Shown: positions 1-29,540, counted from the stretch's first letter. The stretch: DNA of 64,000 nt from an uncultured bacterium (GCA_964434115.1 CAYSSX010000005.1:31063-95062), one strand, 5' to 3'. Made by a program: numbers and translations. The notes: generated by a model not told the origin, from the letters alone.

Positions 1-12
1 CAAAAAATTGAA

Positions 13-1331: not shown

Positions 1332-1341
1332 AAACAGAAAG

Positions 1342-1363: not shown

Positions 1364-1367
1364 TCAA

Positions 1368-2114: not shown

Positions 2115-2139
2115 GGTGCCTCCTGTGTGGGATGTGGGA

Positions 2140-3123: not shown

Positions 3124-3132
3124 TGAATCCTC

Positions 3133-13703: not shown

Positions 13704-13704
13704 T

Positions 13705-14004
13705 TCAAAACCCCGTAAGCCGTTGAATGAGATCCAGAATTGCCCGCGCCATCATGATGATTGCACCGCCGAGTGCGGCAAAGACGCCCCGTCGAAGCCC
13801 CATTTCATTGCCAGTTGCCATGCTGATGCCTCCGATACAAACTCCGATCACAAGAATTCCGGGCCCGATGATTCGAATCAAAAAATCCGCAATCCCTTCT
13901 AAGAACTCTTCAAGCTGGCTTTCAGAATCAGAGAAAGCCCAGGCACACGCCGCCCGCATCAGGACAAAGCAAATAATCAAAAGCCACATTTTCTTGCGCA
14001 TCAT
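13705..14004 (-). CDS. trbC: TrbC/VirB2-like pilin
   Basis: About 100 aa. Signal peptide (MMRKKMWLLIICFVLMRAACAWA) followed by two hydrophobic helices rich in Gly, Ala and Ile. Confidence 0.5.
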   Translation of the reverse strand: MMRKKMWLLIICFVLMRAACAWAFSDSESQLEEFLEGIADFLIRIIGPGILVIGVCIGGISMATGNEMGLRRGVFAALGGAIIMMARAILDLIQRLTGF

Positions 14005-14036
14005 CGAAAACTCCTCTCGTATACAAAGGTGCACTT

Positions 14037-14366
14037 TCAGGGGTTTTTATAGCCGTCACTTAAAAAATTCTTCAGTTTCTTCTTCCCGGATTGAATGTGC
14101 TGAAAAACCGTGGGCTGGCTCAGCTTGAACATGGCCGAAATTTCAGTCTCCGAATAGCCGTCAATATGTTTCAGGGAAAAACAAAGCCGCTGGCGTTCGG
14201 TCAGGGTGCTCAAAGCCGCGTCCATGTCCATCCAGAAGACCAGAGCATCCCACTCCCGCACGGAAAGAATCCTCTCCCGGATAGAGGTCTCGAATTTTGA
14301 CAAGTGTTTACCGTTCTCGACGTTGTGGAAATCAACGCTGATCAGTTTTTTCCGTCTTTTCTTCAT
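14037..14366 (-). CDS. small sigma-70 region-4-like HTH regulator
   Basis: LTERQRLCFSLKHIDGYSETEISAMFKLSQPTVFQHIQSGKKKL resembles sigma-70 region 4.2 / ECF sigma C-terminal HTH. No region 2 is present. Confidence 0.45.
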   Translation of the reverse strand: MKKRRKKLISVDFHNVENGKHLSKFETSIRERILSVREWDALVFWMDMDAALSTLTERQRLCFSLKHIDGYSETEISAMFKLSQPTVFQHIQSGKKKLKNFLSDGYKNP

Positions 14367-14380
14367 GGCTATCCTTTCCT

Positions 14381-14418
14381 GAAAATAAAAAAGCCCGAAA
14401 GAGATAACTCCTTCGGGC
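14381..14418 (-). terminator. rho-independent terminator or attenuator after the coupling-protein gene
   Basis: On the minus strand, a GCCCGAA...TTCGGGC stem with a 12-nt loop is followed by TTTTTTATTTT. Confidence 0.5.
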
Positions 14419-14451
14419 CTCTATGGGTCTCTGGTTGTAAAAAAAACAGGG

Positions 14452-16089
14452 CTACATGATTTCTACCTGGGGAATATGGCCTATGTAATCAAGCTGGATC
14501 ACATCAATCACAAACGGCTGCTTGATAATCACAGCCGCTTCGCCCCGCGCCAGCTCGCGGATAAGATTAGGATTCAGCCGGAACTCTTCAACCTCCCGGA
14601 CACTCACCATGCCGGTAGGGTTTTTGTCGATCCAGTCCTCTTTCGTCTGGATGGTGTCCTTGAAGGTCTTCTCCGTTCCTGAAATCCGCGAGTAAGTCTC
14701 GATAGATGCCGGATCATCCTGCCGCATGACGATTTTGATGTTACAGTTTTCAAGCACTTGCTTAAGGAAATGATCTCCCGCCTTTTGAAGGTCTCCTAGA
14801 GATTGGTGAGCAATCGTAATTGCCAGATGCGCACCACGCGCCTTATTCAAAAATTCCACAAAGGGCTCATAGGCGAAATTAGAGAATTCATCCACAAAGA
14901 TCGGGAAGAAGAAGCGCTTATCTTCGGGAAGGTAAGCCTGAATGTAATTTGAAATCGTCTTCAAATCCTGAAGAACAATCCGGCCAAACCGCCGGGCGGT
15001 TTCCTCATAGCCCTGGGCATTGAGCTGAAAATAAACGATTTTTCGATTTAAATAGGCATCCAGCAGGTCAATTTTTGGTTTTTCATCCCGGAGAAGGCTG
15101 GCGAACTCGCTTTCTGAAATCATCCCCAGATCAGCAGTCATTCCGGCCAGGTCTTTTTGAAAGACCGTGTATTTTTTGAGGATATTTACGACCATTTCCT
15201 TGAGATGGGGATCGGTAATTCCTTTTGCCAGCTCGGACAGCTTCCGCTCATTGGATAAAAGATCATAAAGCTTCTCGAAGGTGATGACTTGCTTTGCCTC
15301 GCAAAGGCTTTTCATCAGCAAGAGCAGGGTTTCTTCCGCCTTCTTTTTGTAAAACTCTTCCGTCCAGATATTGGCGCTTATGATTTTGTCCTTAAGCTCA
15401 GTCGGATTCCCCCTTAAAAGCGGATTATAGGTATGGGACTTTTCTGGATACGCAAGGGAGAAGAAGAGAAAATCCTTTTCACGCCCCAGAGCTTTGACAT
15501 GGTAGTAAATTTTATTCAGAGTTTCGCGGTCGCCCTTGGCGTCCATGATCAGAGCTCCCGTGGCCCGCGAGATATCCTGGGCAAAAATCGGGAGGATAAG
15601 CGATTCTGTTTTCCCCGCGCCGGTAGAACCCACAACGTGGGTGTGCATCTTGCGCATCTCCCGAGTCAGGCGCAAATCCCGTTTGGACTTCATACTCCGC
15701 CCGAGAAAAACCGCATCTTCCTCTGTCTTCTTTCTGGATAAAGCCATGCTGTCTGCTGAAAAGCGATATTTCTTGGCTGGCTTCAAACCCTTCGTGAATT
15801 GCTCCTGCTTGAAAAAACTAAATGTCAGAAAAACAGGCAGCGTGACCACGATATATCCAGCGTAAAAAATCAACCCGAGCGGCAAGACCTCATGAGCGGT
15901 GATCGTTTTCCCAGCAGAGCCGGGATCACGGCTGATTCTGTCCAGCGCGGCCAGGATCAGTGCCGAAAACAGGCATGAGCCTCCCAAAGCCCAATAAAAT
16001 CCTGTTTTCAGACTGCTCACAATAACCCGGCTGAGAATCATAGGTATCTGGATGAAAATATTTTCCAGAAAATCCATCAAGAGCCTCAT
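14452..16089 (-). CDS. type IV coupling protein (VirD4/TraG/TraD family)
   Basis: Two N-terminal transmembrane helices, Walker A motif VVGSTGAGKT, and Walker B FVDEFSNF. 545 aa. Confidence 0.75.
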   Translation of the reverse strand: MRLLMDFLENIFIQIPMILSRVIVSSLKTGFYWALGGSCLFSALILAALDRISRDPGSAGKTITAHEVLPLGLIFYAGYIVVTLPVFLTFSFFKQEQFTKGLKPAKKYRFSADSMALSRKKTEEDAVFLGRSMKSKRDLRLTREMRKMHTHVVGSTGAGKTESLILPIFAQDISRATGALIMDAKGDRETLNKIYYHVKALGREKDFLFFSLAYPEKSHTYNPLLRGNPTELKDKIISANIWTEEFYKKKAEETLLLLMKSLCEAKQVITFEKLYDLLSNERKLSELAKGITDPHLKEMVVNILKKYTVFQKDLAGMTADLGMISESEFASLLRDEKPKIDLLDAYLNRKIVYFQLNAQGYEETARRFGRIVLQDLKTISNYIQAYLPEDKRFFFPIFVDEFSNFAYEPFVEFLNKARGAHLAITIAHQSLGDLQKAGDHFLKQVLENCNIKIVMRQDDPASIETYSRISGTEKTFKDTIQTKEDWIDKNPTGMVSVREVEEFRLNPNLIRELARGEAAVIIKQPFVIDVIQLDYIGHIPQVEIM

Positions 16090-16787
16090 TCGCGGATCTC
16101 CAGAAGCTCATGCACGGAGCTTTTTTCAAAAACCCCCTGAAGGTGAGCATTCATTTGATTCGTTTGCAGTTCCTGAAGCGTCAGAAAGTGCAGCTTCCCG
16201 CAGGTAGCCGCCTCGCCCTTCAGCTTTTCCACAAGCGAAGGAGTATCCGCGATGTAGATCACCTGGCTGATATGATCATCCATCTCATAATCGAAGAAAA
16301 TATCCCGGTAACGCTCCTTGGATTTTTGTGACGATTCATATTCCACCGCGACATACTTCCCCCGGTTATAAATCATCCCGTCCGGCAGTCTGCGCAGCTG
16401 ATAGAGCTTCGATAAAACCCTTTCAGACAGCCAGTCCGTATAGCCCCAGCTGTTAAAAATAATCCGAATGTCCGTCACCGCCACATCATGCTTGTAATGG
16501 GAATAATCCACATCCGCCAGCTCACACAAACCCCGATGCCGTCCGAACGACTTTAACTCCCTCAGCCCATTTGCCGTCACCATATAGAGCACATGCTTAT
16601 AAAACCCGTATTTGCTCCTCTTTAAAAACCCCGCTTTCATCAGTTCATAAAGCCTTCTGTAATCCTCCGTGCTTTTTTCCGAAATATCCTTCCAAAAGAC
16701 TTTTCTTACCTGCTCCCTCGTCATAAACTTTTGTTCCAACATCCACCCCATGATCTCAATATCCCTTGCTGTAATTTTCATTTCCAA
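16086..16787 (-). CDS. Replication-relaxation-family-like protein; candidate relaxase or mobilisation protein
   Basis: 233 aa. N-terminal winged-helix-like region. PDGMIYNRGKYVAVEYESSQK resembles a PD-(D/E)XK core. The gene sits between the coupling protein and a nested inverted-repeat region. Confidence 0.4.
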   Translation of the reverse strand: MEMKITARDIEIMGWMLEQKFMTREQVRKVFWKDISEKSTEDYRRLYELMKAGFLKRSKYGFYKHVLYMVTANGLRELKSFGRHRGLCELADVDYSHYKHDVAVTDIRIIFNSWGYTDWLSERVLSKLYQLRRLPDGMIYNRGKYVAVEYESSQKSKERYRDIFFDYEMDDHISQVIYIADTPSLVEKLKGEAATCGKLHFLTLQELQTNQMNAHLQGVFEKSSVHELLEIRE

Positions 16788-16801
16788 TTTCCTCCTGTTT
16801 T

Positions 16802-16893
16802 CGCTTTCCTCCCGTTTACCTGACCACGATATCTCATCGTAGAGAGAGCGTGGTCAGGCAATGCGCGCTTTGTAAGCGCAAGGGAGGAAAGCG
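16802..16893. other. candidate oriT: nested inverted repeats upstream of relaxase-like gene
   Basis: Three nested palindromes: outer 12-bp inverted repeat CGCTTTCCTCCC / GGGAGGAAAGCG (16802-16813 / 16882-16893), inner 10-bp inverted repeat CCTGACCACG / CGTGGTCAGG (16819-16828 / 16849-16858), and TGCGC...GCGCA (16862-16880). Confidence 0.35.
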
Positions 16894-16941
16894 GTTGTGA
16901 ATGAATACCGCCCCACCGGATTTGTGTGGTGTCAGTGCTCC

Positions 16942-17088
16942 CTAAAATTCGATGATTTGTTTGCATTTTGTGCATTTGATGAAGAGCTTCTTTTTGTTCC
17001 GGTTGGCGTCCTTGCCTTCCTCGGTGTCAAAATAATCATCCGGCACCTCGGCAAGTTTTTTATTACAGTTCGGGCATCGCAAATCTTT
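16942..17088 (-). CDS. small zinc-ribbon protein (Com-like)
   Basis: The region MKDLRCPNCNKK...KCTKCKQ contains two CxxC pairs, giving a protein of about 48 aa. Confidence 0.4.
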   Translation of the reverse strand, partial: KDLRCPNCNKKLAEVPDDYFDTEEGKDANRNKKKLFIKCTKCKQIIEF

Positions 17089-17143
17089 CATGGCGGTTTC
17101 TCCTTCACTCCATTGATTCGAAAAACGAAAAGAAAAAGGAATG

Positions 17144-17635
17144 TCAGATTTGTGAAAACTCCTCCGCGAGGGTTCTGACATGAGCCAGCCGCTTGTTGAT
17201 GAAAGCTTTGCTGCGTTTAAGCAGGGCGGAAATTTCTAGCCGGGTTTTTCCTTCGGAAAGAAGTTTGCAGATAGATCGTTCGCACTGATTAAGCAAACTG
17301 AAAAAATCTTCCTGAGCATCCTGCGGATCGGATTGAGCAAAGTCATGCCCTTCGGCGAGCATTTGCTCCAAAGACAACGCCTCAACGCGTCTTTTCTGGG
17401 CGCAGGCCTGTTTGATGAGATCCGTCAGATGAAGGTTCAAGCACCGGCCCATAGCGCCTTGCCAGCGCTCGGGCTGAATCCAGCCTCTCCGCCTTGTTTC
17501 AATCCAGAAACAGAAGAGTTCCTGCCGGACGTCTTCAAGTTCCCAGCAATGATTCCAACGCATTTTGCGAAGGAATTTTCCGGCAACACGGTTGATGATT
17601 TCGATTTCTTCCTGGGTGATGATCGCTTCTGTCAT
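17144..17635 (-). CDS. sigma-70/ECF-like transcription factor
   Basis: Region-2-like segment ELEDVRQELFCFWIE and C-terminal region-4-like HTH LSEGKTRLEISALLKRSKAFINKRL. Confidence 0.45.
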   Translation of the reverse strand: MTEAIITQEEIEIINRVAGKFLRKMRWNHCWELEDVRQELFCFWIETRRRGWIQPERWQGAMGRCLNLHLTDLIKQACAQKRRVEALSLEQMLAEGHDFAQSDPQDAQEDFFSLLNQCERSICKLLSEGKTRLEISALLKRSKAFINKRLAHVRTLAEEFSQI

Positions 17636-17845
17636 GGGACACACTCCTGTTTTTTGTGTCCCAAAATAAAAGTCAGAGCGATGTCAGAAAATGCCGGAGG
17701 ACTGCCGGAGCCCTCCATGAGGATGGGGATACCTATAAAAGGAGGTGAAAGTGCCGCTTTATATAATGAAGGAGAAAATCATAGCCGGATTTAATTTCGG
17801 TAGTATAATCTGGTAAAAAATGGACACTCAAGAGGTCGCTATAAA

Positions 17846-18031
17846 ATGACTGCCAAATGGCTTACCATTGAACAAATCGCGGACTATCTCCAGGTTTCAA
17901 AGGAGAAGGTTTATAAACTCTGTCAACGCGGCCGCATGCCAGCATCAAAAGTCGGCGGGCAATGGCGTTTCGATAAAAAAGAGGTTGATGCGTGGGTAAG
18001 AAAACAGAGGCCAAAGAAGCAAACAGCATGA
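17846..18031 (+). CDS. xis: excisionase-family (MerR-like) HTH DNA-binding protein
   Basis: 61 aa. LTIEQIADYLQVSKEKVYKLCQRGRMPASKVGGQWRF matches the Xis/AlpA-type helix-turn-helix. First gene of the plus-strand block, and its stop overlaps the next gene's start (ATGA). Confidence 0.6.
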   Translation: MTAKWLTIEQIADYLQVSKEKVYKLCQRGRMPASKVGGQWRFDKKEVDAWVRKQRPKKQTA

Positions 18032-21018
18032 AATCGCCGATATTAAACTCCCCATATAAAGAACCAGCGCTTCATTTCAAGTCTGACGAACGTGGTGTTA
18101 CAGAAGAAATCATTGAATCCCGCCGCCCCAGCAGTTTCTACATCCCTGTCCCAAGAGCTAAGACCAAAGAAAAACAGCTTGAGTTAAATGTTGCCGAAGG
18201 CGCTTTCGGAAGTGAGCTCCAAAAAGAAAATGAATTCATCAATAAAATTCGAGAAAAAGTATCCGAATGGCGTAAAGCCGGTTATCAAGGACTTACAAAA
18301 AATTCCAGAGACCTCTTAGCCTATTGGCAGGACGAAACGCGGGAGAATAAATTGTTCTTCTGCCAGATCGAGGCGATGGAGACCTTGATGTATCTGACAG
18401 AAGTGGCTGAAAAATCTGGTGAAGCTGGAACCATTAACCAGATCAAACAGGCAAACGAAGGTGCAAACCCTGGGCTTTTCCGTTTGGCGTTTAAAATGGC
18501 AACCGGATCGGGAAAGACAGTAGTGATGGCAATGATTATTGCTTATCACACTCTGAATAAAATTCGGTATCCAATGGACGCCCGTTTCACGGATGCTTTT
18601 GCGATTATTACCCCAGGCATTACCATTCGGGATCGCCTGAATGTCCTTCAACCCAATGATCCCAATAACTACTACCTCAAGCGGGACATTGTTTCTTATC
18701 AAGATTTTGAACTGCTCCAGCAAGCCGTTGTTCTGGTTACGAACTTTCATCAGCTAGAGTTGCGTCAGAACCCTAGGTTTCAGTTAGGCGCGGTCATAAA
18801 AGCCGCTGGGCTAATGAAGGAAGAAGCTGTCAAAGAAACCCCAAGCACAATGGTTAACCGGGCTTTCCGCAGCCTTCTGAGCAAACCCCGTGTCCTTGTT
18901 ATCAATGATGAAGCTCACCATTGCTATCGGGAGAAACCCGAAACCATCAAGCTGACGGGCGAAGACCGGAAAGAGGCGGATGAAAACAACGAAGCCGCCC
19001 GTGTGTGGATCAGCGGACTTGAAGCGCTTTCTCAAAAAATGAGCGTTAATGCGATTATTGATCTTTCTGCTACGCCGTATTTCCTTCGGGGATCGGGCTA
19101 TTCTGAGGGAACGATATTCCCCTGGGCTATTTTTGATTTTTCACTGCTGGATGCTTTGGAATGCGGCGTTGTAAAAATCCCTCGCCTGCCGATTGAAGCG
19201 GATAACATCACGCATGGCGATATTCCTGAGTTCAGAAATCTTTGGATTCATGTTCGGGATGATCTGCCAAAGAAGGGGTTAAAGACCGGCGGCAAAGATT
19301 ACATTTCCGCCCATGTGCTTCCAACGAAGCTGCAAGAAGCTTTGGAATCGCTCTACGGAAGCTACGAAAAGTATCACAAGGAATACGAAAAGCAAAAGAA
19401 GCAGAATCCAGCGGTGATGCCTCCTGTGATGATTGTGGTCTGCAACAATACAGCGGTTTCCGAGCTTGTTTATCATTGGATCGCAGGTTTTGACCGCGAA
19501 ACCGCAAGCGGTAAAATTAAGATTGAAAAAGGCAACCTCGAAATTTTCAGGAACGAGGATGGAGTCCGCTTTTTGGATCGTCCTAATACTCTTCTGATTG
19601 ACAGCGCACAGCTTGAAAGCGGCAAAAAAATAAATCCCGAATTTAAAAAGATCTTCGCCAAGGAAATTGAAGACTTCCACAAAGAATATCGCCGCCGTTT
19701 TCCCGGACGCACGGAACCGGAAGATGAAGAGCTTTTGCGTGAAGTCATGAACACTGTGGGAAAACCCGGCAAGCTCGGAGAAAACATCAAATGCGTGGTG
19801 TCGGTTTCCATGCTTACCGAAGGGTGGGACGTTAACTCTGTGACGCACATTCTCGGCATACGGGCATTTTCAACGCAATTGCTTTGCGAACAGGTTGTGG
19901 GTAGAGCGCTCCGCCGGGTGGATTATAACGTCGGCCCTGACGGGTTAATGACGCCAGAATATGCCGAGGTCTATGGAGTTCCCTTTAGTTTCCTTAAAGT
20001 TGAAGGCGGGACAACCCCGCAACCACCCAAAGTCATTCATCGTGTCCATGCCTTACCTGAGCGTGAGAAGTATGAGATCACCTTCCCGCGATTGGAAGGC
20101 TACCGCTATGAACTAAACGAGACGAAGTTAGCGGCTCATTTCACCGAAGAATCAAAAATTGTTATCGAAAATGAACCCACGGAAGTTACTTCTGACGGTG
20201 TTATCGGTGAAGAAACCACAGAACGCCTTGAAAAGATCAAAGAACGCCGTGAAGGTGAAGTGGTTATCCGCCTCACCCAGGGGCTTTTGAAGCGCTATTT
20301 TACGGACGGCTATGGATCAGAAAAGTATTGGCTCACGCCGCAGCTTCAGCGGATTGCTTCGGAATATGTCAAAAAACAAGTGATTCTGAAAGACCGCATG
20401 GTGATTGGATACCTGACGGTTGGAACCTACTTCACCGGTGCTTTGACTAAAATTCATCAATCGATTGTGGCTGAAAACTTGGCGCACCAGAAAGACAAGA
20501 AGGTTCTTCCTATTCTAGCCCCTTACGATCCGGTTGGATCAACCCGGTATGTTGATTTCTTGACGACGAAACCGGTTCAAGAAACTGTTAAGAGCCATCT
20601 GAATTACGTTGTCGCGGACACGGAAGAATGGGAGCAAGGCGTTGCAAAGAGACTTGAGCAAATGCCCGAAGTTTTGTCCTATGTCAAAAACCAAAATTTG
20701 GGATTTACAATTCCCTATGAGCATCAAGGTCATGGACACCATTACTGGCCGGACTTTATCGTTAAGATCGAGATGAAAGACAAAACCACCCTGAACCTGC
20801 TCGTTGAGGTCACTGGAAAAAAAGATGATCGCAAGGCCATGAAGATTCGCACAGCCCGTGATTTTTGGGTTCCAGCGGTCAATAATATTGAAAAGTTCAG
20901 AAAGTGGGCGCTCATTGAAATTCAAGACATTCATGAAACCCAAGGGCTCATTCGGGCTGGATTAGCCAAGGGATTCGATAATCTGACAAAGGAACTGCCA
21001 TGCCTCGATCAAAAGTAA
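18028..21018 (+). CDS. res: Type III restriction enzyme Res-like SF2 helicase-nuclease
   Basis: Motif I GSGKT, motif II DEAH (VINDEAHH), motif VI QVVGRALRR, and a C-terminal PD..E.K-like segment (WPDFIVK...LLVEVTGKK). An alternative GTG start lies at 17992. Confidence 0.7.
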   Translation: MKSPILNSPYKEPALHFKSDERGVTEEIIESRRPSSFYIPVPRAKTKEKQLELNVAEGAFGSELQKENEFINKIREKVSEWRKAGYQGLTKNSRDLLAYWQDETRENKLFFCQIEAMETLMYLTEVAEKSGEAGTINQIKQANEGANPGLFRLAFKMATGSGKTVVMAMIIAYHTLNKIRYPMDARFTDAFAIITPGITIRDRLNVLQPNDPNNYYLKRDIVSYQDFELLQQAVVLVTNFHQLELRQNPRFQLGAVIKAAGLMKEEAVKETPSTMVNRAFRSLLSKPRVLVINDEAHHCYREKPETIKLTGEDRKEADENNEAARVWISGLEALSQKMSVNAIIDLSATPYFLRGSGYSEGTIFPWAIFDFSLLDALECGVVKIPRLPIEADNITHGDIPEFRNLWIHVRDDLPKKGLKTGGKDYISAHVLPTKLQEALESLYGSYEKYHKEYEKQKKQNPAVMPPVMIVVCNNTAVSELVYHWIAGFDRETASGKIKIEKGNLEIFRNEDGVRFLDRPNTLLIDSAQLESGKKINPEFKKIFAKEIEDFHKEYRRRFPGRTEPEDEELLREVMNTVGKPGKLGENIKCVVSVSMLTEGWDVNSVTHILGIRAFSTQLLCEQVVGRALRRVDYNVGPDGLMTPEYAEVYGVPFSFLKVEGGTTPQPPKVIHRVHALPEREKYEITFPRLEGYRYELNETKLAAHFTEESKIVIENEPTEVTSDGVIGEETTERLEKIKERREGEVVIRLTQGLLKRYFTDGYGSEKYWLTPQLQRIASEYVKKQVILKDRMVIGYLTVGTYFTGALTKIHQSIVAENLAHQKDKKVLPILAPYDPVGSTRYVDFLTTKPVQETVKSHLNYVVADTEEWEQGVAKRLEQMPEVLSYVKNQNLGFTIPYEHQGHGHHYWPDFIVKIEMKDKTTLNLLVEVTGKKDDRKAMKIRTARDFWVPAVNNIEKFRKWALIEIQDIHETQGLIRAGLAKGFDNLTKELPCLDQK

Positions 21019-23471
21019 AATCTCCTACAAACGCTGCGCCGGTCGCATCGTATAAACACGAGAACAAGCGCGCTCGAATTCCCACTCAAGAGGAATCCGA
21101 AAAACTCAGCCCAAGGGACAAACAGCCCGTTAAAAAGCGCTATGACTATGATCCCTCCCTTGATCCACAGCTTATCTGGTCTGGGAAAAAAGAAGCTGGC
21201 GCTCAATTTGAAGTAGCAACTGTTCCCATTTACGTCCAGGAAAAAATTGCGCCCGAGGCCATCATTGCTCGCCTTAAAGCTGGGCATACTGAAAACACGC
21301 AGATGCTTCTCTTTGGAGAGACCGCGCACGAACAGTTTACAAAAGCGGTTGATTTTTATAAACACGAGGATAACTGGCAGAACCGCATGATTCTCGGCGA
21401 TAGCCTTCTTGTAATGAATAGCCTTTTGGAGAAAGAAGGCATGCGTGGCAAGGTGCAGACCATTTACATGGACCCACCGTATGGAATTAAGTTTGGCTCG
21501 AATTGGCAGGTTTCGACTCGTAAGCGTGAAGTTAAAGATAATAAGTTAACTGATTTTGTTCGCCAACCAGAGCAAGTAAAGGCGTTTCGAGATACTTGGG
21601 AACTTGGAATCCATTCTTATCTTTCGTATTTGAGGGATCGTCTACTTGTCTCACGAGAGCTTCTGACTGAAAGCGGCAGTTGTTTTGTTCAAATTAATAT
21701 CGAGAATGTTCATATAGTGCGGAACTTAATGGAAGAAATTTTTGGCGCAAGAAATTTTGTGAGCATGATAAGTTTCTATAAAACAAGCGGTTTTTCTGGG
21801 AAGCATCTCGATTCTGTTTCAGACTATTTAATTTGGTATGCCAAAGATATCGATCATCTAAAATATCGTCAGTTATACACTCCAAAGGAACCTCCAGTTA
21901 ATGATGCGAATTTTCGGTTTGTCCTTTTGGCTGACGGAACGGTAAGAAAAATGACAGACGAAGAAAGGCAAGCCCCTCTTTCAATTCCATCAGGCGCTCG
22001 CATTTTTAGATATGATAATTTAACTTCTGATGGCGCTAGCGCAGACCCACAAGAATTTTTATTCAAAGGGAAAAAGTATCTTCCTGGATCGGGATTACAT
22101 TGGAAAACAACGATTGATGGATTAAAACGTCTTTCAGTTCTGGGTCGTATAGAGAAAGTTGGTGCCCAGTTGGCTTATGTTCGTTTTTGGGACGATTTTC
22201 CATTCACGCCTCGTGTAAATAGCTGGGATGATACGGCCACGGGAGGTTTTGGGGATGAAAAATACTATGTGGTGCAGACTACGGTCAAAACCATAGCTCG
22301 TTGTGTTTTAATGACAACAGACCCCGGTGATTTAGTGCTTGATCCAACCTGCGGTTCAGGCACAACAGCTTACGTTGCTGAACAATGGGGAAGACGTTGG
22401 ATAACTACGGACACATCTCGGGTTGCATTGGCGTTAGCGCGAACTCGCCTCATGACAGCTAAATACCCATTTTATAAGTTAAAGGAAGTGAAAAATCTTC
22501 GAGAAGGTTTTGAATGCAACGGGATTCCTCATATCACACTAAAATCCCTCGCTAAAAACGAAGAACCAGATCAGGAGATTATGTATGATCAGCCAGTGGA
22601 AGAAAAAAATATCGTTCGAGTAGCAGGCCCATTTACCGTGGAATCTTTATCTCCACATAGAATTTCTGATGCGCAGGAAATGGTTTCCTCGGAACGATTT
22701 ATAGAAACGATTGTTTCTAACTTACTCAAGGCGGGCGTTCAAACCGGCGAAAAAGGTGCTCGTGTCGAGTTTGTAAACCTTGATATTCTTCCGGGCGGCC
22801 CGGAAATTCAAGCCGCCGGTGAATACAAAACCGAGAATGGTCTAAAAAAGGTAGCCGTTTCAATCGGCCCCGAGTTTGGTAGCGTTGACGATGATTTTAT
22901 TAAAGACGCGGCCAAGATCGCCAAGAAGTTTGCCGATTTGCTTGTGGTGGCCGCAACATCATTCGATGCGTCTGCATTTTCCGTTCCTGCGGACATGAAC
23001 GGATTGCGGATTATGCGCGTTAAAATCAACCCCGATCTCTCGATGGGAGACCTTCTCAAGAAAACGGGTTCGGGCAATCTATTTTTGGCTTTTGGAGAAC
23101 CCGAAGTCAAAGTTAAGGAAACAAAAGAAGGTGTTGTTGTTGAAGTCGTCGGCGTGGATGTCTACGACCCGGTGAAGAGCGAAATTCGTTCCAGCGGATC
23201 AGGTGACCCCGAACACGACATTGCAGCCTGGTTCATCGATACCAATTACAACGGAGAAGCTTTCTTCGTCACGCACGCATATTTTTTGGGCGCAGATAAG
23301 CCCTACGAAAAATTAAAGAAGGCGTTGAAGGCAGATATTAATGAAGCCGCGTGGGATGAACTTTACTCTATTGTCTCCCGCCCCTTCCCTAAGCCCAAAA
23401 CCGGCAAGATTGCGATCAAAGTCATCAATCACTACGGCGACGAAGTGATGAAGATTGTGGATATTTCATAA
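21000..23471 (+). CDS. mod: beta-class N6-adenine/N4-cytosine DNA methyltransferase (Type III Mod-like)
   Basis: Motif IV DPPY (IYMDPPYG) lies about 300 aa before motif I (LDPTCGSGTT). This is the beta permutation, with the target-recognition domain between the two motifs. A further C-terminal extension of about 370 aa follows motif I. Confidence 0.75.
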   Translation: MPRSKVKSPTNAAPVASYKHENKRARIPTQEESEKLSPRDKQPVKKRYDYDPSLDPQLIWSGKKEAGAQFEVATVPIYVQEKIAPEAIIARLKAGHTENTQMLLFGETAHEQFTKAVDFYKHEDNWQNRMILGDSLLVMNSLLEKEGMRGKVQTIYMDPPYGIKFGSNWQVSTRKREVKDNKLTDFVRQPEQVKAFRDTWELGIHSYLSYLRDRLLVSRELLTESGSCFVQINIENVHIVRNLMEEIFGARNFVSMISFYKTSGFSGKHLDSVSDYLIWYAKDIDHLKYRQLYTPKEPPVNDANFRFVLLADGTVRKMTDEERQAPLSIPSGARIFRYDNLTSDGASADPQEFLFKGKKYLPGSGLHWKTTIDGLKRLSVLGRIEKVGAQLAYVRFWDDFPFTPRVNSWDDTATGGFGDEKYYVVQTTVKTIARCVLMTTDPGDLVLDPTCGSGTTAYVAEQWGRRWITTDTSRVALALARTRLMTAKYPFYKLKEVKNLREGFECNGIPHITLKSLAKNEEPDQEIMYDQPVEEKNIVRVAGPFTVESLSPHRISDAQEMVSSERFIETIVSNLLKAGVQTGEKGARVEFVNLDILPGGPEIQAAGEYKTENGLKKVAVSIGPEFGSVDDDFIKDAAKIAKKFADLLVVAATSFDASAFSVPADMNGLRIMRVKINPDLSMGDLLKKTGSGNLFLAFGEPEVKVKETKEGVVVEVVGVDVYDPVKSEIRSSGSGDPEHDIAAWFIDTNYNGEAFFVTHAYFLGADKPYEKLKKALKADINEAAWDELYSIVSRPFPKPKTGKIAIKVINHYGDEVMKIVDIS

Positions 23472-23502
23472 ATATCGCTCTTAATAACATGGCAGAGGAG
23501 AG

Positions 23503-24768
23503 TTGAGATTGAGCACTCATGATCCAAGAAAAGTAGTTGAAGATTTACGCAACCATCTTGCCGCCCACGACAAACCCTTAATATTTCTTTTTGGCGCAGG
23601 AACGTCTAGTTCGATCAATATAGCTCCTCCACCTCCCGCTGGCACAAAACGAGACTATAAGCCGCTTGTGCCAGCTATTAAAATTTTGACCGACCGCTGT
23701 AAAGCCGCCGTGAAAAATTTAGGCGATGCTTTTGAAAAAGCTTGGGGTATTTTGGAATCAGAATGCAGCGATTGCAAAAGGCCGATCAACATTGAGAATA
23801 TTTTATCGAGAGTTCATTTTAAAATTGATGCGATAGGTAAAAGCGAAAAATTGCTTGGCCTTGAGAAGGCCGATCTTGAAAAATTAGAGACAACGATATT
23901 AAAAACAATCGCTGGGGCTGTTAGCCCCAAAGCAACTGACATACCTAGCAATATACCGCATGATGACTTTGCCACATGGATTAAGCGTGCAGCGAGAACC
24001 GCCCCTTTGGAAATTTTTACAACCAATTATGACATCCTGATTGAAAAATCGCTAGAAGCAGCGCACATTCCGGTATTCGATGGGTTTGTTGGTTCAAGTG
24101 AACCGTTTTTTTATGCTGATAGCTTGGATCGACCTGAAATCATTCCTCCATCTGGTTGGGTTCGTCTTTGGAAGATTCACGGATCGATTAATTGGAAAAT
24201 CGTAAAAAATAATCTGGATCAAAAAATCGTCCGGCATTCTGAACCGGTGCCGTCAGGAGAAATGATTCTTCCATCTCATAGGAAATATGATGAGTCGCGG
24301 AAGCAACCATACCTTGCATTATTAGACAGGTTATCCAACGTTATGAATCGTGAGCATGCTCTCTTAATTACATGCGGATATAGCTTTGGCGATGACCATA
24401 TTAACGCGATTATTTTCAATAATCTCGACAACAGACCAACAACCCATGTTATTTCGCTTCAATACGAAGATTTATCAGTGAATGGAACGATTGTGGAGTG
24501 GGCCAAAAAAAGATCCAATTTCACAATTCTAGGCCCCAATTCAGGGGTTATTTCAGGCCGATTCGGAACCTGGAGATTGATTCAGCCCGTGGATGATAAA
24601 AGCAGCTCTTTTATGGATTTTGCTTTTGACAGTAAAGCTTCTATGGAAGCTGGAACGTCAGCTGCTACGCCAACGGTTTCCGCAGACCATTTCTCAGGCG
24701 CTCTCCGATTGGGCGATTTCAATTGGCTTTGCAAATTTCTGAACACAATGGGACGAAAGACCGAGTGA
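23503..24768 (+). CDS. SIR2-family (SIR2_2) NAD+-dependent effector, as in the SIR2-HerA defence system
   Basis: Motifs GAGTS (LIFLFGAGTSS), TTNYD, and the catalytic-His motif KIHGS. TTG start. Confidence 0.7.
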   Translation: MRLSTHDPRKVVEDLRNHLAAHDKPLIFLFGAGTSSSINIAPPPPAGTKRDYKPLVPAIKILTDRCKAAVKNLGDAFEKAWGILESECSDCKRPINIENILSRVHFKIDAIGKSEKLLGLEKADLEKLETTILKTIAGAVSPKATDIPSNIPHDDFATWIKRAARTAPLEIFTTNYDILIEKSLEAAHIPVFDGFVGSSEPFFYADSLDRPEIIPPSGWVRLWKIHGSINWKIVKNNLDQKIVRHSEPVPSGEMILPSHRKYDESRKQPYLALLDRLSNVMNREHALLITCGYSFGDDHINAIIFNNLDNRPTTHVISLQYEDLSVNGTIVEWAKKRSNFTILGPNSGVISGRFGTWRLIQPVDDKSSSFMDFAFDSKASMEAGTSAATPTVSADHFSGALRLGDFNWLCKFLNTMGRKTE

Positions 24769-24772
24769 GTTA

Positions 24773-26563
24773 ATGGCTGGAAAGAACCCCACTTTAATTG
24801 GCCACGTTGATTCTGTAAATGGTGGCGTCGTTACAGTCCAACTTCTTGACCATATGCCCACCCTTGTTATGGTTAAGGGCCAGTCATATCGAATTGGCCA
24901 AATAGGCGCATTCGTTCGTATTCCTTTGGGCTACACACAGCTTTACGCTGTCTGCACCTTGGTAGGAGCTGCTGCTGCCCCTCAGAAAGATTCCCCTTTG
25001 CCCAATCACGGTCACAGATGGATTTCTGTCACTCTTTTTGGAGAATCAGTCGGAGATTCATTTGAAAGAGGCGTTAGCCAATATCCGACAATTCAGGATG
25101 AAGTTCATATTGTTACGCCTGATGATGTCAAAATAATTTATGGTTCAACCCTCCATGATAAAGCTATTACTGTTGGTCACATTGCTGCATCATCAGGAAT
25201 CGAAGGCAGATTAGATTTGGCAAGACTGGTTGCGCGCCATTCTGCTATTGTTGGTTCAACCGGATCGGGAAAATCAAACTTCGTTGCGGTGCTCTTAGAG
25301 GCTCTAGCTACGCAAGGGCTTAGCGCTTCTCGTGTTCTAGTCATAGATCCGCACGGAGAATATGCATCTTCCGTTGGCAAATACGGCTACACTTTTCGTG
25401 TAAATCCAGACAGGGCTAAGGGAGAAAAACCACTTCATGTCCCGTTCTGGGCTTTACCGTTCGATGAGCTTCGAGATATTGCATTAGGAGAAATGCAACC
25501 CGCAAGTGATTCGGCAATTAGGGATGAGATTAAGGAAAGAAAAAAAACCACGGCATTAACGCTGACCCCCAGGCCACCGGAGACCGCAATCACGGCAGAC
25601 TCACCTATACCATTTAATATCAGAAAGCTTTGGTTTGATTTTGATGATTTCGAGCGACAGACGTTCAATCAAAACCAAGGAAAAGATTTGTGCACGCCTA
25701 CCACGCGAGGTGACGCTGAAAAGCTTATATCCAATATTTATCCTAAAATTGGATTGGGCAGCACGGCGCCATTCGCAAATCCAAGCCCGAGAAGAATAAT
25801 GAAGCAATTGGAACTTCTCAAAAGCCGATTGCAAGATACCAGATTTAACTTTTTGTTTAATCCCGGGCCCGATTACACTCCAAACGCTGATGGCAAAACA
25901 TTAAAAGACCTTGATGCGCTTGTTCAAACTTGGATCGGTCATGACAAGCCCATAACGGTTCTGGACGTATCAGGAATGCCTTCAGAAATATTGTCTACGG
26001 TTGTGGGCACGATGTTGCGAATCGTTTACGACATTCTGTTTTGGGCAGCCGACCTTCCGGTTGGCGGGCGTAAGCAACCTTTGCTGATTGTTTTGGAAGA
26101 AGCGCATCTTTTTTTACCTGAAGGAAAAGACAGCCCAGCACATAGAACTGTCACAAAAATAGCTAAAGAAGGGCGTAAATACGGAGTGGGATTGAGCATT
26201 GTTACGCAACGTCCTACGGAAGTAGAGAGCACAACTTTGAGTCAGTGTGGAACTGTTATTGCGCTAAGGATTACAAATCCAAAAGATCGTGAAAAAGTCG
26301 CTTCGGCTATGCCTGATGATTTAGGTGCATTAGCAGGTATGTTGCCCTCATTGAGGACTGGTGAGGGCTTAGTTATTGGGGAAGCCATGCCGATCCCTTC
26401 ACGTATTCAATTTTATCGAGCAAACAACAAGCCCGTTGGAGGTGATCCGGATGTAATGGCGGCTTGGACTGCGCCTCGGCCGGACGGAAAGGACTATAAA
26501 AAGGCGCTTGAAAATTGGCGCCGGCAATCAACATTCAAAACAGGAGAAACAGAAAATGGTTGA
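24773..26563 (+). CDS. HerA-like ATPase (FtsK/HerA superfamily), partner of SIR2
   Basis: Walker A IVGSTGSGKSN, Walker B LLIVLEEAHLF. 596 aa, with a 4-nt gap after the SIR2 gene. Confidence 0.75.
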   Translation: MAGKNPTLIGHVDSVNGGVVTVQLLDHMPTLVMVKGQSYRIGQIGAFVRIPLGYTQLYAVCTLVGAAAAPQKDSPLPNHGHRWISVTLFGESVGDSFERGVSQYPTIQDEVHIVTPDDVKIIYGSTLHDKAITVGHIAASSGIEGRLDLARLVARHSAIVGSTGSGKSNFVAVLLEALATQGLSASRVLVIDPHGEYASSVGKYGYTFRVNPDRAKGEKPLHVPFWALPFDELRDIALGEMQPASDSAIRDEIKERKKTTALTLTPRPPETAITADSPIPFNIRKLWFDFDDFERQTFNQNQGKDLCTPTTRGDAEKLISNIYPKIGLGSTAPFANPSPRRIMKQLELLKSRLQDTRFNFLFNPGPDYTPNADGKTLKDLDALVQTWIGHDKPITVLDVSGMPSEILSTVVGTMLRIVYDILFWAADLPVGGRKQPLLIVLEEAHLFLPEGKDSPAHRTVTKIAKEGRKYGVGLSIVTQRPTEVESTTLSQCGTVIALRITNPKDREKVASAMPDDLGALAGMLPSLRTGEGLVIGEAMPIPSRIQFYRANNKPVGGDPDVMAAWTAPRPDGKDYKKALENWRRQSTFKTGETENG

Positions 26564-26768
26564 TATGCATTTTGTGGATTCATCTAATATCGAGGCCATA
26601 GGCTACGATCCAGCTTCGCAGGAACTGCACGTTCGCTTTTTGTCGGGAACAGAATATGTTTATCATGGTGTGCCACAGGAGGTTTATGACGAGTTGATGG
26701 CGGCTCCCTCAAAAGGAAGTTTTTTGAATAGAGCGGTTAAATCTAATTATCAATACTCTCAGAAGTGA
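26556..26768 (+). CDS. KTSC-domain protein
   Basis: SSNIEAIGYDPASQELHVRF.SG.EYVYHGVPQEVYDEL resembles the KTSC (lysyl-tRNA synthetase C-terminal-like) domain. Its ATG overlaps the HerA stop. Confidence 0.55.
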   Translation: MVDMHFVDSSNIEAIGYDPASQELHVRFLSGTEYVYHGVPQEVYDELMAAPSKGSFLNRAVKSNYQYSQK

Positions 26769-26774
26769 TGAAGA

Positions 26775-27542
26775 ATGTCTCAATATTATAATGGAAAGCG
26801 ATCACGTAATTTATTCGCACCAAAAAGCACGGAGCCTTTTAAATTAAGCCGTACAAAAGTCGATCTGTTTCTGTCATGCCCGAGATGTTTTTATCTTGAC
26901 CGCCGTTTGGGTGTAGGTCAGCCTCCGGGATTCCCATTTAGCCTTAATTCCGCAGTAGACACGCTTCTAAAAAAAGAATTTGATGCATATAGGGTGCGTC
27001 AAGAAACGCATCCTTTAATGAAAACATATGGGATTAACGCTGTCCCATTCCGGCATGAAAAAATTGAGGAATGGCGCGACGCCTTGCGAAGAGGGATTTC
27101 TTATTTGCATAAGCCGACAAACTTTATTGTGACCGGCGCAGTTGATGATGTCTGGATAACTCCGAACGGAGATTTGTTAATTGTTGATTATAAGAGCACC
27201 TCCAAAAAGGAGGCCGTTAGTTTGGATGCCGAGTGGCAAATATCTTACAAGAGGCAAATGGAATTTTATCAGTGGCTATTCCGAAGAAATGAATTCAAAG
27301 TTTGGCCTACCGGTTACTTTGTCTATTGCAACGGTTTAACTGATAAAGACAGTTTTGATAAGAAGCTTGAGTTTGACGTTAAAATTATTCCTTACGAGGG
27401 CAATGATAGCTGGGTAGAACCTGCACTGCTTGATGCACGCAAGTGTTTAGATGCGGATCAGATCCCCCAACCGCACTCCGATTGTGATTATTGCAGATAT
27501 TTTGCTTTGGTGAAAGACGCAGAAACGCAAAACAAAGCATAG
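26775..27542 (+). CDS. Cys-cluster PD-(D/E)XK nuclease (Cas4/RecB-family-like)
   Basis: N-terminal CPRC pair, GAVDD and IVDYK core motifs, QxxxY-like EFYQW, and C-terminal CDYC pair. Starts 6 nt after the KTSC gene stop. Confidence 0.6.
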   Translation: MSQYYNGKRSRNLFAPKSTEPFKLSRTKVDLFLSCPRCFYLDRRLGVGQPPGFPFSLNSAVDTLLKKEFDAYRVRQETHPLMKTYGINAVPFRHEKIEEWRDALRRGISYLHKPTNFIVTGAVDDVWITPNGDLLIVDYKSTSKKEAVSLDAEWQISYKRQMEFYQWLFRRNEFKVWPTGYFVYCNGLTDKDSFDKKLEFDVKIIPYEGNDSWVEPALLDARKCLDADQIPQPHSDCDYCRYFALVKDAETQNKA

Positions 27543-27668
27543 TAATCTGGGAATAAATTTCCGCCATTGTTGTTCCGCTGCCACCTTAAGAGCATTTTTG
27601 AATGAGAATTTTCTTTGAAAAAAGTTCATTTAATAATACAATTGCTCAATTACAAGACTGATAAGAAT

Positions 27669-29357
27669 ATGAAAAAAGCCTACATCTACGCCAGAGTATC
27701 GACCGCCGAGCAGAACAAGGGCGATATTACGTCCATAGAGAACCAGATTGAGACCTGTAAGCACTTTATAGCCATTAAACAGGCCGAGGGGTGGCAGCAT
27801 GTTAAAACGATCACAGACCCCGGTTTCTCGGGTAAAGATCTGGATCGCCCCGGCATTAAAGAGCTGATGGCCGAGGTTGCCCAGGGGAACGTGGATGTGG
27901 TCGTCACCTACAAAGTAGACCGGGTTAGCCGGTCGCTGATCAAGTTTTACGAGTTCAATAAGCTTCTCGAATCCCACAAGGTTGAATTCGCTTCCGCCAC
28001 CCAAAGCTTTGATACCTCCAGCTCGTCTGGTCGCCTGATGCTCAATATCCTGCTGAGTTTCGCGGAGTATGAACGCGAACTTATCAGCGAGCGAACAGCC
28101 GACAAAATGCAGGCTAATTTCGAGCGCGGAAAATGGGGCGGCGGATATGTGCCCTACGGTTATGAGCTTGATCCGGCAATAAAAGATTTAAAAGTTCATC
28201 CCAAAGAATCCAAAGCGGTTCGCTTAATGTTTGAATCCGTAGCCGCAGGTTTGACATTGGCGAGAACGGCGGACATTCTTCATGAAAAAGGACACCTTAC
28301 GAAATCCCGGATTGTGAAACGTCAAAACGGGAAAGAAGTAAACATGGGCGGAAGAAAATTCCGTGAGGACATTATCTTTCGGATGATCCGCAATCCGTTT
28401 TATTGTGGTTTTATGACGCACAACGGCAAGCTCGGAAAACATCGCTATGAAAGTATTATTCCGAAAACTCTTTATGATAAAGCCAACGCTTCCATGAAGA
28501 AAAAATCGCCTGACAATAACGGCGTTAAGATCAAGCCGAATGCAGACCGGCACACCCACCTTCTGAAAGGCATTCTGAAGTGCGATGACTGTGGCTGTTC
28601 TATGACGCCGGTGCCCAGCGGGAAGCGGGATAAAGACGGCAATCAATACCTATACTACGTCTGCACCGAGGTAAATCACTATAAGGACGCTAAGACCTGC
28701 AAGGTGCGGACTCTTCCAGCCCGGTTAATCGAAAACACCATGATTCACTATTTGAGGGATTTAGGGCAGAAACCCGAACTTCTGGCAGAGGTTATCAGAG
28801 CTTCAAACAAGGCGGCGGGTGGCGAGGTTAAGAACCTCAAGAAGGAAGAGGAACGGCTCAATAAAGCGGTTTTAGCCGCCACCGAAGAGATTAAGAACCT
28901 TATTCAGGTGATTAAGGCCAGTAAGAAAATCTCCCCGGAGATACAGGCGGAAACCGATGCTTTATCAGCCAAGAGGGATCAGCTGTCAGGTGAGCTTGAA
29001 AAGGTCAGAGTGGATTTAAACATTCACGCTTCCAAGCAGCTTGAAATGGAAACGATTCGAAAGAACCTGCTCCATTTCACAGACGTTGTGGATAAGCTCT
29101 CTTTGGAAGAAAAGAAGGAACTGATGTCCCTCATTTTGAAGGAAGTGAAAGTCTCGCGTGTTAACCACGAAAAAGGAAAGGCGCCAGCCGAAGCTGGCGC
29201 CTTCAATACAATGATACGAACTTCGTGGTTTCGCATTGTCGTGACAATTTACGCAATGCCTTCATTGCCTGTCACTTATGACGAACTCACTCAAAAGTTC
29301 GTATTTACTTCTAAATGGCTCCCCCGCGTGGGCTCGAACCACGGACAAGGTGATTAA
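27669..29357 (+). CDS. large serine recombinase (integrase)
   Basis: Resolvase N-terminal domain with catalytic Ser (YIYARVSTAEQ), a recombinase domain, a Cys-rich zinc ribbon (CDDCGCS...YYVCTE), and a C-terminal coiled-coil. The last 42 nt of the ORF overlap tRNA-Asn. Confidence 0.85.
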   Translation: MKKAYIYARVSTAEQNKGDITSIENQIETCKHFIAIKQAEGWQHVKTITDPGFSGKDLDRPGIKELMAEVAQGNVDVVVTYKVDRVSRSLIKFYEFNKLLESHKVEFASATQSFDTSSSSGRLMLNILLSFAEYERELISERTADKMQANFERGKWGGGYVPYGYELDPAIKDLKVHPKESKAVRLMFESVAAGLTLARTADILHEKGHLTKSRIVKRQNGKEVNMGGRKFREDIIFRMIRNPFYCGFMTHNGKLGKHRYESIIPKTLYDKANASMKKKSPDNNGVKIKPNADRHTHLLKGILKCDDCGCSMTPVPSGKRDKDGNQYLYYVCTEVNHYKDAKTCKVRTLPARLIENTMIHYLRDLGQKPELLAEVIRASNKAAGGEVKNLKKEEERLNKAVLAATEEIKNLIQVIKASKKISPEIQAETDALSAKRDQLSGELEKVRVDLNIHASKQLEMETIRKNLLHFTDVVDKLSLEEKKELMSLILKEVKVSRVNHEKGKAPAEAGAFNTMIRTSWFRIVVTIYAMPSLPVTYDELTQKFVFTSKWLPRVGSNHGQGD

Positions 29358-29391
29358 CAGTCACCTGCTCTACCAACTGAGCTACAGGGGA
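29316..29391 (-). tRNA. tRNA-Asn (anticodon GTT)
   Basis: Cloverleaf folded by hand: 7-bp acceptor stem with U1-A72, D-stem GCTC/GAGC, anticodon loop CUGUUAA, T-loop TTCGAGC, discriminator G, and an encoded CCA. Confidence 0.85.
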
Positions 29392-29540
29392 ATAATTCTA
29401 ATTGTATGAAGCCTTACTAACTGCTTGCTCTACCCTCTACTGCCTTCAACTGCCAAAAAGCAGGTACAGGGGATCGAAGGGAGAAAATGTTCGATAATTA
29501 TAAGGATTCAGCGTCTCAGGTCAACCGATGATTGCAGGTC

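Follow-up and report, generated by a model that had tools for sequence, protein, structure and literature searches.

A probable mosaic defence island behind an HTH leader cassette on an integrative conjugative element of an uncultured bacterium

We describe an array of seven genes on a 64,000-nucleotide stretch of DNA from an uncultured bacterium (GCA_964434115.1, CAYSSX010000005.1:31063-95062), hereafter the window, in which positions are counted from the first letter. The genes lie on the plus strand at 17846-27542 and encode a small helix-turn-helix (HTH) protein, a restriction endonuclease (Res), a DNA methyltransferase (Mod), a SIR2 protein, a HerA ATPase, a KTSC protein and a Cas4-like nuclease. 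According to our analysis, this 9.7-kb array, carried by an integrative conjugative element (ICE), is probably a mosaic defence island in which separately mobile units stand head to tail behind an HTH leader cassette, with probable transcriptional read-through. We read it as a mosaic and not as a co-evolved operon because its two main blocks, Res-Mod and SIR2-HerA-KTSC, never co-occur in the related loci and because homology to those loci ends at gene borders. The sequence also supports the stacking, pointed out in an earlier note on this DNA, of a type III-like restriction-modification (RM) system with a SIR2-HerA system of the NAD-depletion type on a conjugative element next to a recombinase.

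Layout of the Gene Array

The earlier note had described the genes as a single defence operon led by the HTH gene. Its labels agree with the domain content found in our searches (HTH_17, Res, Mod, SIR2_2, HerA, KTSC and nuclease), and its coordinates with our map of open reading frames (ORFs). Recomputation of the junctions reproduced an ATGA overlap between the HTH and Res genes, a 19-nt overlap between Res and Mod, 31 nt between Mod and SIR2, 4 nt between SIR2 and HerA, an overlap (8 nt) between HerA and KTSC, and 6 nt between KTSC and the nuclease gene; a gap of 126 nt then separates the nuclease gene from that of a recombinase. Such tight packing on the same strand is on its own statistically unremarkable. 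The spacer at the junction of the two main modules (23472-23502, plus strand) carries the Shine-Dalgarno sequence GGAGGAG and has no homology to either flanking block.

The Res-Mod Block

Res (18028-21018, plus strand) is a type III-like enzyme with a superfamily 2 (SF2) helicase and a putative C-terminal PD-(D/E)XK-like endonuclease. It belongs to the BPTD_3080 family of restriction endonucleases (NCBIfam NF046055, 1103 bits against a cut-off of 800, over residues 2-974 of 996), and its ATG at 18028 is supported by the homology of the relatives, which begins exactly there. The Walker A (residues 159-164) and DEAH (293-298) motifs are present; the ResIII domain scored 40 bits and RE_endonuc 18.3 bits, below its cut-off of 23.4. 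Scores against the type III Res equivalog (15.6 bits, cut-off 564) and PADLOC REase_III (at most 25 bits) were low. Searching the PDB with the Res sequence gave no solved relative, and we found no characterisation of BPTD_3080 in the literature.

Mod (21000-23471, plus strand) is an N6/N4 DNA methyltransferase (N6_N4_Mtase, 98.5 bits; PADLOC MTase_III PDLC03632, 715 bits) with a variable target-recognition region at ~21750-22300. Its DPPY motif (residues 158-161) precedes the S-adenosylmethionine-binding motif DPTCGSGT (448-455), which places it in the beta class, as expected of a type III Mod.

Homologues of Res 68-81% identical occur in many phyla. A scan of a genome collection yielded 42 loci (L001-L042) with Res 68-80% identical to that of the window, from Patescibacteria, Omnitrophota, Chloroflexota, Planctomycetota, Actinomycetota and Ignavibacteria. 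Res and Mod were found together in every locus with a long enough contig, and res precedes mod in the window as well as in every relative that carries the pair. The DNA homology to more than 30 of these loci covers exactly 18028-23471, from the Res ATG to the Mod stop, and is interrupted within Mod at ~21745-22299 in most of them; we read this central break as a putative swappable target-recognition domain. SIR2, HerA and KTSC were absent from all 42 loci. Because the Res-Mod proteins are 68-80% identical across very distant, mostly uncultivated phyla and only the centre of Mod diverges, the comparison indicates that the pair has probably undergone a recent and wide horizontal spread with swapping of specificity. 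A divergent serine recombinase gene lies beside Res-Mod in L002, L004, L009 and L011, with an extra ORF of ~156 amino acids (aa) next to it in L004.

The SIR2-HerA-KTSC Block

SIR2-HerA systems of the Paenibacillus type act through phage-triggered depletion of nicotinamide adenine dinucleotide (NAD+) and abortive infection. In the window, the SIR2 gene (23503-24768, plus strand; SIR2_2; PADLOC PDLC04093, 415 bits) encodes a predicted NADase-type effector; its start could be the TTG at 23509, as in the related locus L043. The adjacent gene encodes its partner, the ATPase/translocase HerA (24773-26563, plus strand; PADLOC PDLC04105, 518 bits). Both match the system of Paenibacillus sp. 453MF (8WIV/8WLD/8W9L; PMC11472057): SIR2 aligned with 8w9l_A at 5e-55 with the catalytic N175, D177 and H226 conserved, and HerA aligned with 8wiv_A at 7.8e-149 over chain residues 11-604, with Walker A (GSTGSGKS, 161-168) and Walker B (IVLEEAH, 439-445) motifs kept. 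The window thus has the SIR2 catalytic Asn/Asp/His and an adjacent HerA with both Walker motifs, and the two proteins match the same PADLOC sub-models as their clade.

The difference from the Paenibacillus system lies in the last ~65 residues of its 696-aa HerA, which are here encoded by a separate gene for a 70-aa KTSC protein (26556-26768, plus strand; KTSC, 87 bits). Because this protein aligns to residues 631-695 of 8wiv_A, and the HerA of the window to residues 11-604 of the same chain, KTSC is the detached C-terminal domain of a Paenibacillus-type HerA. The C-terminal arm/KTSC extension is therefore present in the window as a separate gene, and the view of KTSC as an independent member of the operon, as in the earlier note, had to be given up.

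The relatives of HerA comprised L043-L046 and a metagenome scan that added 80 loci. Where HerA shares at least 40% identity with that of the window, KTSC stands directly after it in 35/35 assessable loci, and all 35 metagenomic relatives sampled have it as a split gene. None of the 47 loci in the clade with HerA at most 32% identical has KTSC, which was found nowhere else in the fetched DNA. The KTSC-carrying clade was noted among L043-L077, L090 and L095. The closest HerA relatives are 92% identical, and all have the order SIR2-HerA-KTSC. PADLOC has no model for KTSC. The cryo-EM study of the Paenibacillus system describes a "C-terminal arm domain" of HerA, of which KTSC is the end, without using the term KTSC (PMC11472057), and the Aravind group mentions the link between HerA and KTSC only as an unpublished observation, noting in addition variants with HerA, KTSC and an endoDNase.

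The context of this block varies: it follows a type II RM system in L043 (an Omnitrophica genome) and precedes a type I RM system in L044-46. DNA homology to L043-L046 (79% identity) begins at the SIR2 start codon and covers 23509 to 26769-26778; outside it, the only homology is a weak nuclease match in L043, and the upstream DNA that accompanies SIR2 in the relatives is not retained in the window. A close Res-Mod pair is absent from 35/35 loci of the KTSC clade. We conclude that SIR2-HerA-KTSC belongs to a characterised two-gene system, of which it is a version with one gene split.

The Leader HTH Protein and Its Promoter

The first gene (17846-18031, plus strand) encodes a 61-aa protein of the HTH_17 family (72 bits). 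Its best match in both NCBIfam and PADLOC is MAD1 (NF047737, 70.4 bits, below the equivalog cut-off of 80; PADLOC mad1, 9e-15), and the NCBIfam excisionase-family domain model was matched at 65.8 bits. The AlphaFold model (predicted local distance difference test, pLDDT, of 85) is a MerR-like winged helix, and its nearest solved folds include BldC and the RdfS excisionase (template-modelling, TM, scores of 0.73-0.75) and Pukovnik Xis (TM 0.65); a sequence search of the PDB with the HTH profile gave no relatives. As the modelled fold is common to excisionases (RdfS, Xis) and regulators (BldC, MerR), it cannot choose between the two roles. Genomic context, unlike the fold, does discriminate between them.

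The HTH family comprised ~130 cluster representatives, 70-93% identical. In nine of the nine contexts looked up, the homologue (81-88% identical) stood at the head of a defence operon with a methyltransferase, a different one each time: type I RM (L127, L132, L135, L136), bacteriophage exclusion (BREX; L128, L141), a DrmD-like SNF2 helicase with an MTase_III Mod and a Res (L129, L131), and Vsr-Dcm-SNF2 (L133). The next gene abuts or overlaps in 8/9 look-ups, and the distance from the stop of the homologue to the next start ranged from -37 to +10 nt in the eight that were tabulated; in the ninth, L141, a 65-aa ORF ahead of brxA begins ~2 nt past the HTH stop. The suggestion of the earlier note that a xis-like HTH couples excision to defence was not borne out by these contexts, in which the homologues head RM, BREX or DISARM-like (defence island system associated with restriction-modification) operons and not recombinases.

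As to whether the HTH-led arrangement recurs, which the earlier note had proposed to check, the answer depends on what follows the HTH gene. A small HTH gene of any kind lies directly upstream of Res in only 4/41 Res-Mod loci with upstream sequence (HTH_17 in L001 and L013, both with an ATGA overlap, and XRE-type HTH_3 in L011 and L033), whereas the cassette heads nine other defence operons. The HTH gene is a facultative and not a fixed partner of Res-Mod. In L034, a copy 78% identical heads a Schlafen/AlbA_2 gene upstream of the Res-Mod pair.

The promoter/leader block of the cassette lies at 17801-17824 (plus strand) and consists of TAGTATAAT, with the -10 element at 17804-17809, followed by CTGGTAAAAAATGGA; the full copy reads TAGTATAATCTGGTAAAAAATGGA. 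An alignment of the 160 nt upstream of ten HTH loci recovered this block in 10/10 (consensus TTGGTATAATCTGGnAAAAAATGGA, an extended -10 with TGnTATAAT), and it was also recovered in a pairwise comparison with L034. Because the block is shared by all ten loci while the DNA flanking it is unrelated among them, the HTH gene and its promoter travel together as a cassette. A scan of viral contigs for the HTH protein gave three distant matches only, and the cassette is therefore not notably viral. The 61-aa protein is most likely a MAD1-like regulator; our literature search on HTH_17 proteins as defence regulators found nothing specific.

Several further observations concern the surroundings of the cassette. 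An inverted repeat, GGGACACA...TGTGTCCC, at 17626-17672 straddles the start codon and Shine-Dalgarno sequence of a divergent gene (17144-17644, minus strand, 166 aa, no family match) and could act as an operator or as a hairpin that blocks translation. Two kinds of gene recur immediately 5' of the HTH cassette (L133, L134, L136, L137) or of SIR2-HerA-KTSC, with further cases in L141, L142 and L044-46: one of ~260-290 aa that weakly matches CoiA_N, and one of 493 aa with DUF2779 (PD-(D/E)XK-related). Such genes may be further conserved neighbours of the modules. A short contig, L088 (35-3001), carries an HTH_17 gene, SIR2 in two ORFs, HerA and a serine recombinase gene, and resembles a miniature of the arrangement of the window without RM.

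The Cas4-Like Nuclease

The last gene of the array (26775-27542, plus strand) encodes a Cas4-like PD-(D/E)XK nuclease (PDDEXK_1, 55 bits, with weak Cas4 matches), in which the motifs GAVDD, VDYK, CPRC and CDYC, including two CxxC pairs, are intact. No relatives were found by a sequence search of the PDB. Among the fetched loci, only four have homologues: L001, L004 and L042, where they lie beside Res-Mod, and L043, where the homologue follows KTSC. The nuclease is unlikely to be a core part of either module, in view of this sporadic recurrence and of the diverse genes after KTSC; its place as a regular member, assumed in the earlier note, was accordingly dropped, and we treat it as an accessory hitch-hiker of the defence island.

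In L004, the homologue (46% identical) lies directly 3' of an RVT_1 reverse-transcriptase gene downstream of Res-Mod (16099-17753), and the two may form a reverse transcriptase-nuclease defence pair. A similar protein of 160-180 aa with a faint DUF1353 match is encoded after the nuclease gene in L043 (12755-13243) and immediately upstream of Res in L031 (4217-4759), and is another shuffled island gene.

Expression of the Array and Alternative Explanations

The spacer 23472-23502 contains no predicted promoter-like or terminator-like site on the plus strand, and the sequence scan predicted no sigma-70-like promoter or intrinsic terminator at the module joints. No terminator-like hairpin follows mod in the window; in 31 relatives, the scan 3' of mod found hairpins in a minority, with no pattern. 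The scan predicted 22 promoters, where shuffled sequence gave 17.3 +/- 4.0, and 23 terminators, where it gave 15.6 +/- 4.2; both numbers are close to expectation. Because the 31-nt and 6-nt spacers leave no recognisable internal promoter or terminator, transcription that starts at ~17.815 kb probably continues to the end of the seven-gene array. The single-operon claim of the earlier note stands in so far as an HTH gene with a phylogenetically conserved promoter heads the array and nothing in the sequence interrupts transcription; it does not stand for a conserved unit, as Res-Mod and SIR2-HerA-KTSC never co-occur in the 42 + 35 related loci.

We infer that the array could work as follows. The leader cassette would consist of the extended -10 promoter and the 61-aa HTH protein, which would bind its own promoter region, presumably at or just downstream of the -10 element, and autoregulate; it would thereby set or limit the expression of whichever operon follows. 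Res-Mod would restrict unmethylated DNA, SIR2-HerA, with the KTSC domain encoded by a third gene, would serve as an abortive-infection system, and a stand-alone Cas4-like nuclease would form the last unit. Under read-through, the HTH protein would de facto gate both RM and SIR2-HerA, and might hold the potentially self-toxic restriction and the abortive system to a safe level, above all when conjugation has brought the element into an unmethylated host. Judging from the sequence, control of SIR2-HerA by read-through is plausible and would be specific to this element. The idea of the earlier note that one DNA-binding protein may govern both defence layers is likewise plausible for this element, as a local result of module fusion and not a conserved design.

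Several points weigh against this reading. The promoter and terminator scans were crude, the former using a sigma-70-type consensus only, which may not be that of the host. The RdfS and Xis excisionases share the predicted fold of the HTH protein to the same degree, and the sample of HTH contexts consists of nine look-ups picked for long contigs and is not a census. In L088, an HTH_17 gene (58% identical) heads a SIR2-HerA pair that is followed by a serine recombinase, so that the family is not strictly tied to methylation. Furthermore, no convincing palindromic or repeated operator was found in 17645-17845 upstream of the HTH gene, and autoregulation is therefore proposed by analogy only.

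Among the alternatives, the one with the most to recommend it, although we still consider it unlikely, is that the modules are adjacent but independently expressed. The HTH protein would control Res-Mod only, and a cryptic promoter in the 3' end of mod would drive SIR2-HerA-KTSC and possibly the nuclease. Separate promoters are common in defence islands, SIR2-HerA-KTSC is self-contained in many settings elsewhere and is preceded by 185-250 nt of upstream DNA of its own in L043-L046, and the limits of the promoter scan leave room for such a promoter. Yet the upstream DNA of the relatives was not kept, the homology beginning only at the SIR2 start codon; the 31-nt spacer offers a Shine-Dalgarno sequence and no -10/-35 match, and mod is not followed by a terminator-like hairpin. 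We find it improbable that the nuclease is a functional fourth component of SIR2-HerA-KTSC, for example a DNA-end processor feeding HerA. The order SIR2-HerA-KTSC-nuclease does recur in L043, which is among the four closest relatives, nuclease-related genes flank other members of the clade (DUF2779 in L044-46, PDDEXK_1 with RNase_H_2 in L048 and, as judged by sequence, a RecB-like N-terminus in L059), and the endoDNase variants noted by the Aravind group are in line with it. On the other hand, the L043 nuclease is only 55% identical, while its SIR2, HerA and KTSC are 83-96% identical, the genes after KTSC in the remaining relatives are heterogeneous, on the opposite strand or unresolved, and L001, L004 and L042 carry the homologue beside Res-Mod without SIR2-HerA.

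The possibility to which we give least credence is the one raised in the earlier note, that of one co-evolved seven-gene operon whose excisionase-family HTH coordinates excision with the expression of RM and abortive infection. The tight junctions and the single conserved promoter ahead of the array would fit it, as would, for the excision role, the match to the excisionase-family model, the modelled MerR-like winged helix superposing on RdfS and Pukovnik Xis, and the serine recombinase carried by the element. It is very hard to reconcile with two main modules that never co-occur elsewhere and with homology that stops at gene borders. As for excision, all nine close HTH homologues looked up head defence operons, a recombinase being nearby, and divergent, only in L133/L134; the Res-Mod loci that do adjoin a recombinase (L002, L004, L009, L011) lack this HTH. 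In the window, 9.6 kb separate the HTH gene from the recombinase gene, and the latter has a promoter-like site of its own. No conserved genetic linkage of the HTH gene to a cognate recombinase was found in the window and the nine homologue contexts. A mosaic of mobile units behind a leader cassette remains the reading that we prefer.

The Surrounding Conjugative Element

The placement of the defence genes as cargo between a conjugation module and a recombinase, suggested in the earlier note, was confirmed, with type IV secretion system (T4SS) genes to the left and a serine recombinase gene to the right. The conjugation genes (10963-16787, minus strand) encode a VirB4/TraC ATPase (10963-13440), a TraD-like coupling protein (14452-16089) and a MobC-family protein (16086-16787); VirB9/VirB10-like genes also lie to the left of the array on the minus strand. 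The large serine recombinase (27669-29357, plus strand) has Resolvase, Recombinase and Zn_ribbon_recom domains and is CcrB-like and XisF-like; its gene is preceded by a promoter-like site at 27615-27642 on the plus strand (TTGAAA-16-TACAAT, 10/12 matches).

A tRNA-Asn(GTT) gene (29316-29391, minus strand), the sole match in an Rfam search, marks the right border of the low-G+C element, and the host genes ftsK, pnp and dut lie to its right. At ~29 kb, the G+C content steps from 0.44-0.48 to 0.50-0.56. The element thus has a T4SS ATPase, a coupling protein, a recombinase, insertion at the side of a tRNA gene and a compositional step, as an ICE should. No relaxase domain was found among the scanned ORFs of the window, which yielded only the MobC-family protein, and a search for att or direct repeats with 29000-29549 gave only chance matches of at most 17 nt, with no att repeat in the window; the left end of the element may fall outside it. 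Megablast of 17600-29400 gave no match in E. coli genomes and one 299-bp methyltransferase match in plasmids.

The recombinase ORF extends ~180 nt beyond the conserved domains and ends inside the minus-strand tRNA-Asn gene, and a strong minus-strand hairpin with a T-run at 29177-29204, placed as a tRNA terminator, lies inside this ORF. These features suggest that the att crossover is close to where the recombinase gene ends and that the C-terminal tail of the protein comes from the host. The region 1-6109, which has a low G+C content like that of the element, contains genes for a LexA-like S24 repressor, a nucleotidyl transferase, HlyD/OEP efflux and a glycosyltransferase, which may be either cargo or host genes.

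Comparison with Known Regulators and Restriction Systems

In type II RM systems, the C proteins, dimers of the XRE/HTH_3 type, recognise palindromic C-boxes and time the expression of the endonuclease (R) relative to the methyltransferase (M). As with them, the small gene for the HTH protein of the window immediately precedes the endonuclease gene and overlaps it, here by an ATGA that fits translational coupling, and an XRE-type HTH occupies exactly that position in the Res-Mod relatives L011 and L033. Unlike them, it belongs to HTH_17 and not to HTH_3, and 17645-17845 contains no palindrome except at the start of the divergent gene. Furthermore, both R and M lie downstream here, and the gene next to the HTH gene in homologous cassettes may be M, BrxA or an SNF2 helicase.

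The canonical gene order of type III RM systems is mod then res, and their ATP-dependent cleavage requires two inversely oriented unmethylated sites. Res-Mod resembles such EcoP15I-like systems in its SF2-helicase Res with a putative C-terminal endonuclease and in its beta-class Mod with a central variable target-recognition region, but differs in having res before mod and a Res that falls into the separate NCBIfam family BPTD_3080.

MAD1 of the methylation-associated defence system (MADS; 10.1101/2023.03.30.534895; NF047737) is likewise a small HTH_17 protein encoded by the first gene of a methyltransferase-containing defence operon. It is dispensable for MADS protection and is regarded by its discoverers as a widespread regulator, whereas MAD6-8 are mandatory in their model (10.1101/2023.03.30.534895). 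Membership of the window in MADS was rejected: the MAD1 score is below the cut-off, mad2-mad7 have no matches, and HerA, which matches mad8 at 5e-21, fits the HerA models far better.

The closest functional precedent for the control of RM and an abortive system by a leader gene, by analogy, is RptR, a 79-aa bZIP-like helical dimer that binds TAGCTA repeats (PMC12255303). In enteropathogenic E. coli (EPEC), RptR is the leader repressor of the one promoter that drives an island whose type I RM operon harbours DarTG2, and it is widely associated with RM (PMC12255303). Both are small DNA-binding proteins (for the HTH of the window this role is predicted) encoded by the first gene, behind one promoter, of an island that combines RM with an abortive or toxin system. 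Unlike RptR, the HTH of the window is predicted to be a MerR-like winged helix, and we regard the two as analogues and not homologues.

Conclusion

Defence islands on ICEs, type III-like RM and SIR2-HerA were already known. Two features were not described in the literature that we searched: a leader cassette of HTH_17 and promoter that is common to type I RM, type III-like RM, BREX and DISARM-like operons, and an explicit assignment of KTSC as a domain of HerA that is split off throughout one clade. The latter bears on annotation, because PADLOC has no KTSC model, and on the role of the C-terminal arm of HerA in the cryo-EM structures. In addition, the locus shows RM and SIR2-HerA naturally joined in what is likely a single transcription unit, parallel to the RptR-controlled island of RM and DarTG.

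The regulation of defence islands is much less understood than their effectors, and to our knowledge few dedicated defence regulators are known (C proteins, BrxR/CapW and RptR). Tentatively, and as a possibility that we would not yet call probable, we suggest that the HTH gene with its extended -10 promoter could be a new, horizontally mobile plug-in cassette that autoregulates methylation-based immune operons, with copies 80-90% identical across distant uncultivated phyla, in front of type I and type III-like RM, BREX, DISARM-like and MADS operons. Here, its control would have been extended to SIR2-HerA by operon fusion, so that a single repressor could gate both first-line and abortive defence on entry into a new host. 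This hypothesis carries most of the value of the finding. If it is true that the cassette has been reused before at least five kinds of methylation-based systems, it would provide a general handle on how toxic restriction systems are kept safe, which is especially relevant on conjugative elements that repeatedly enter unmethylated hosts.

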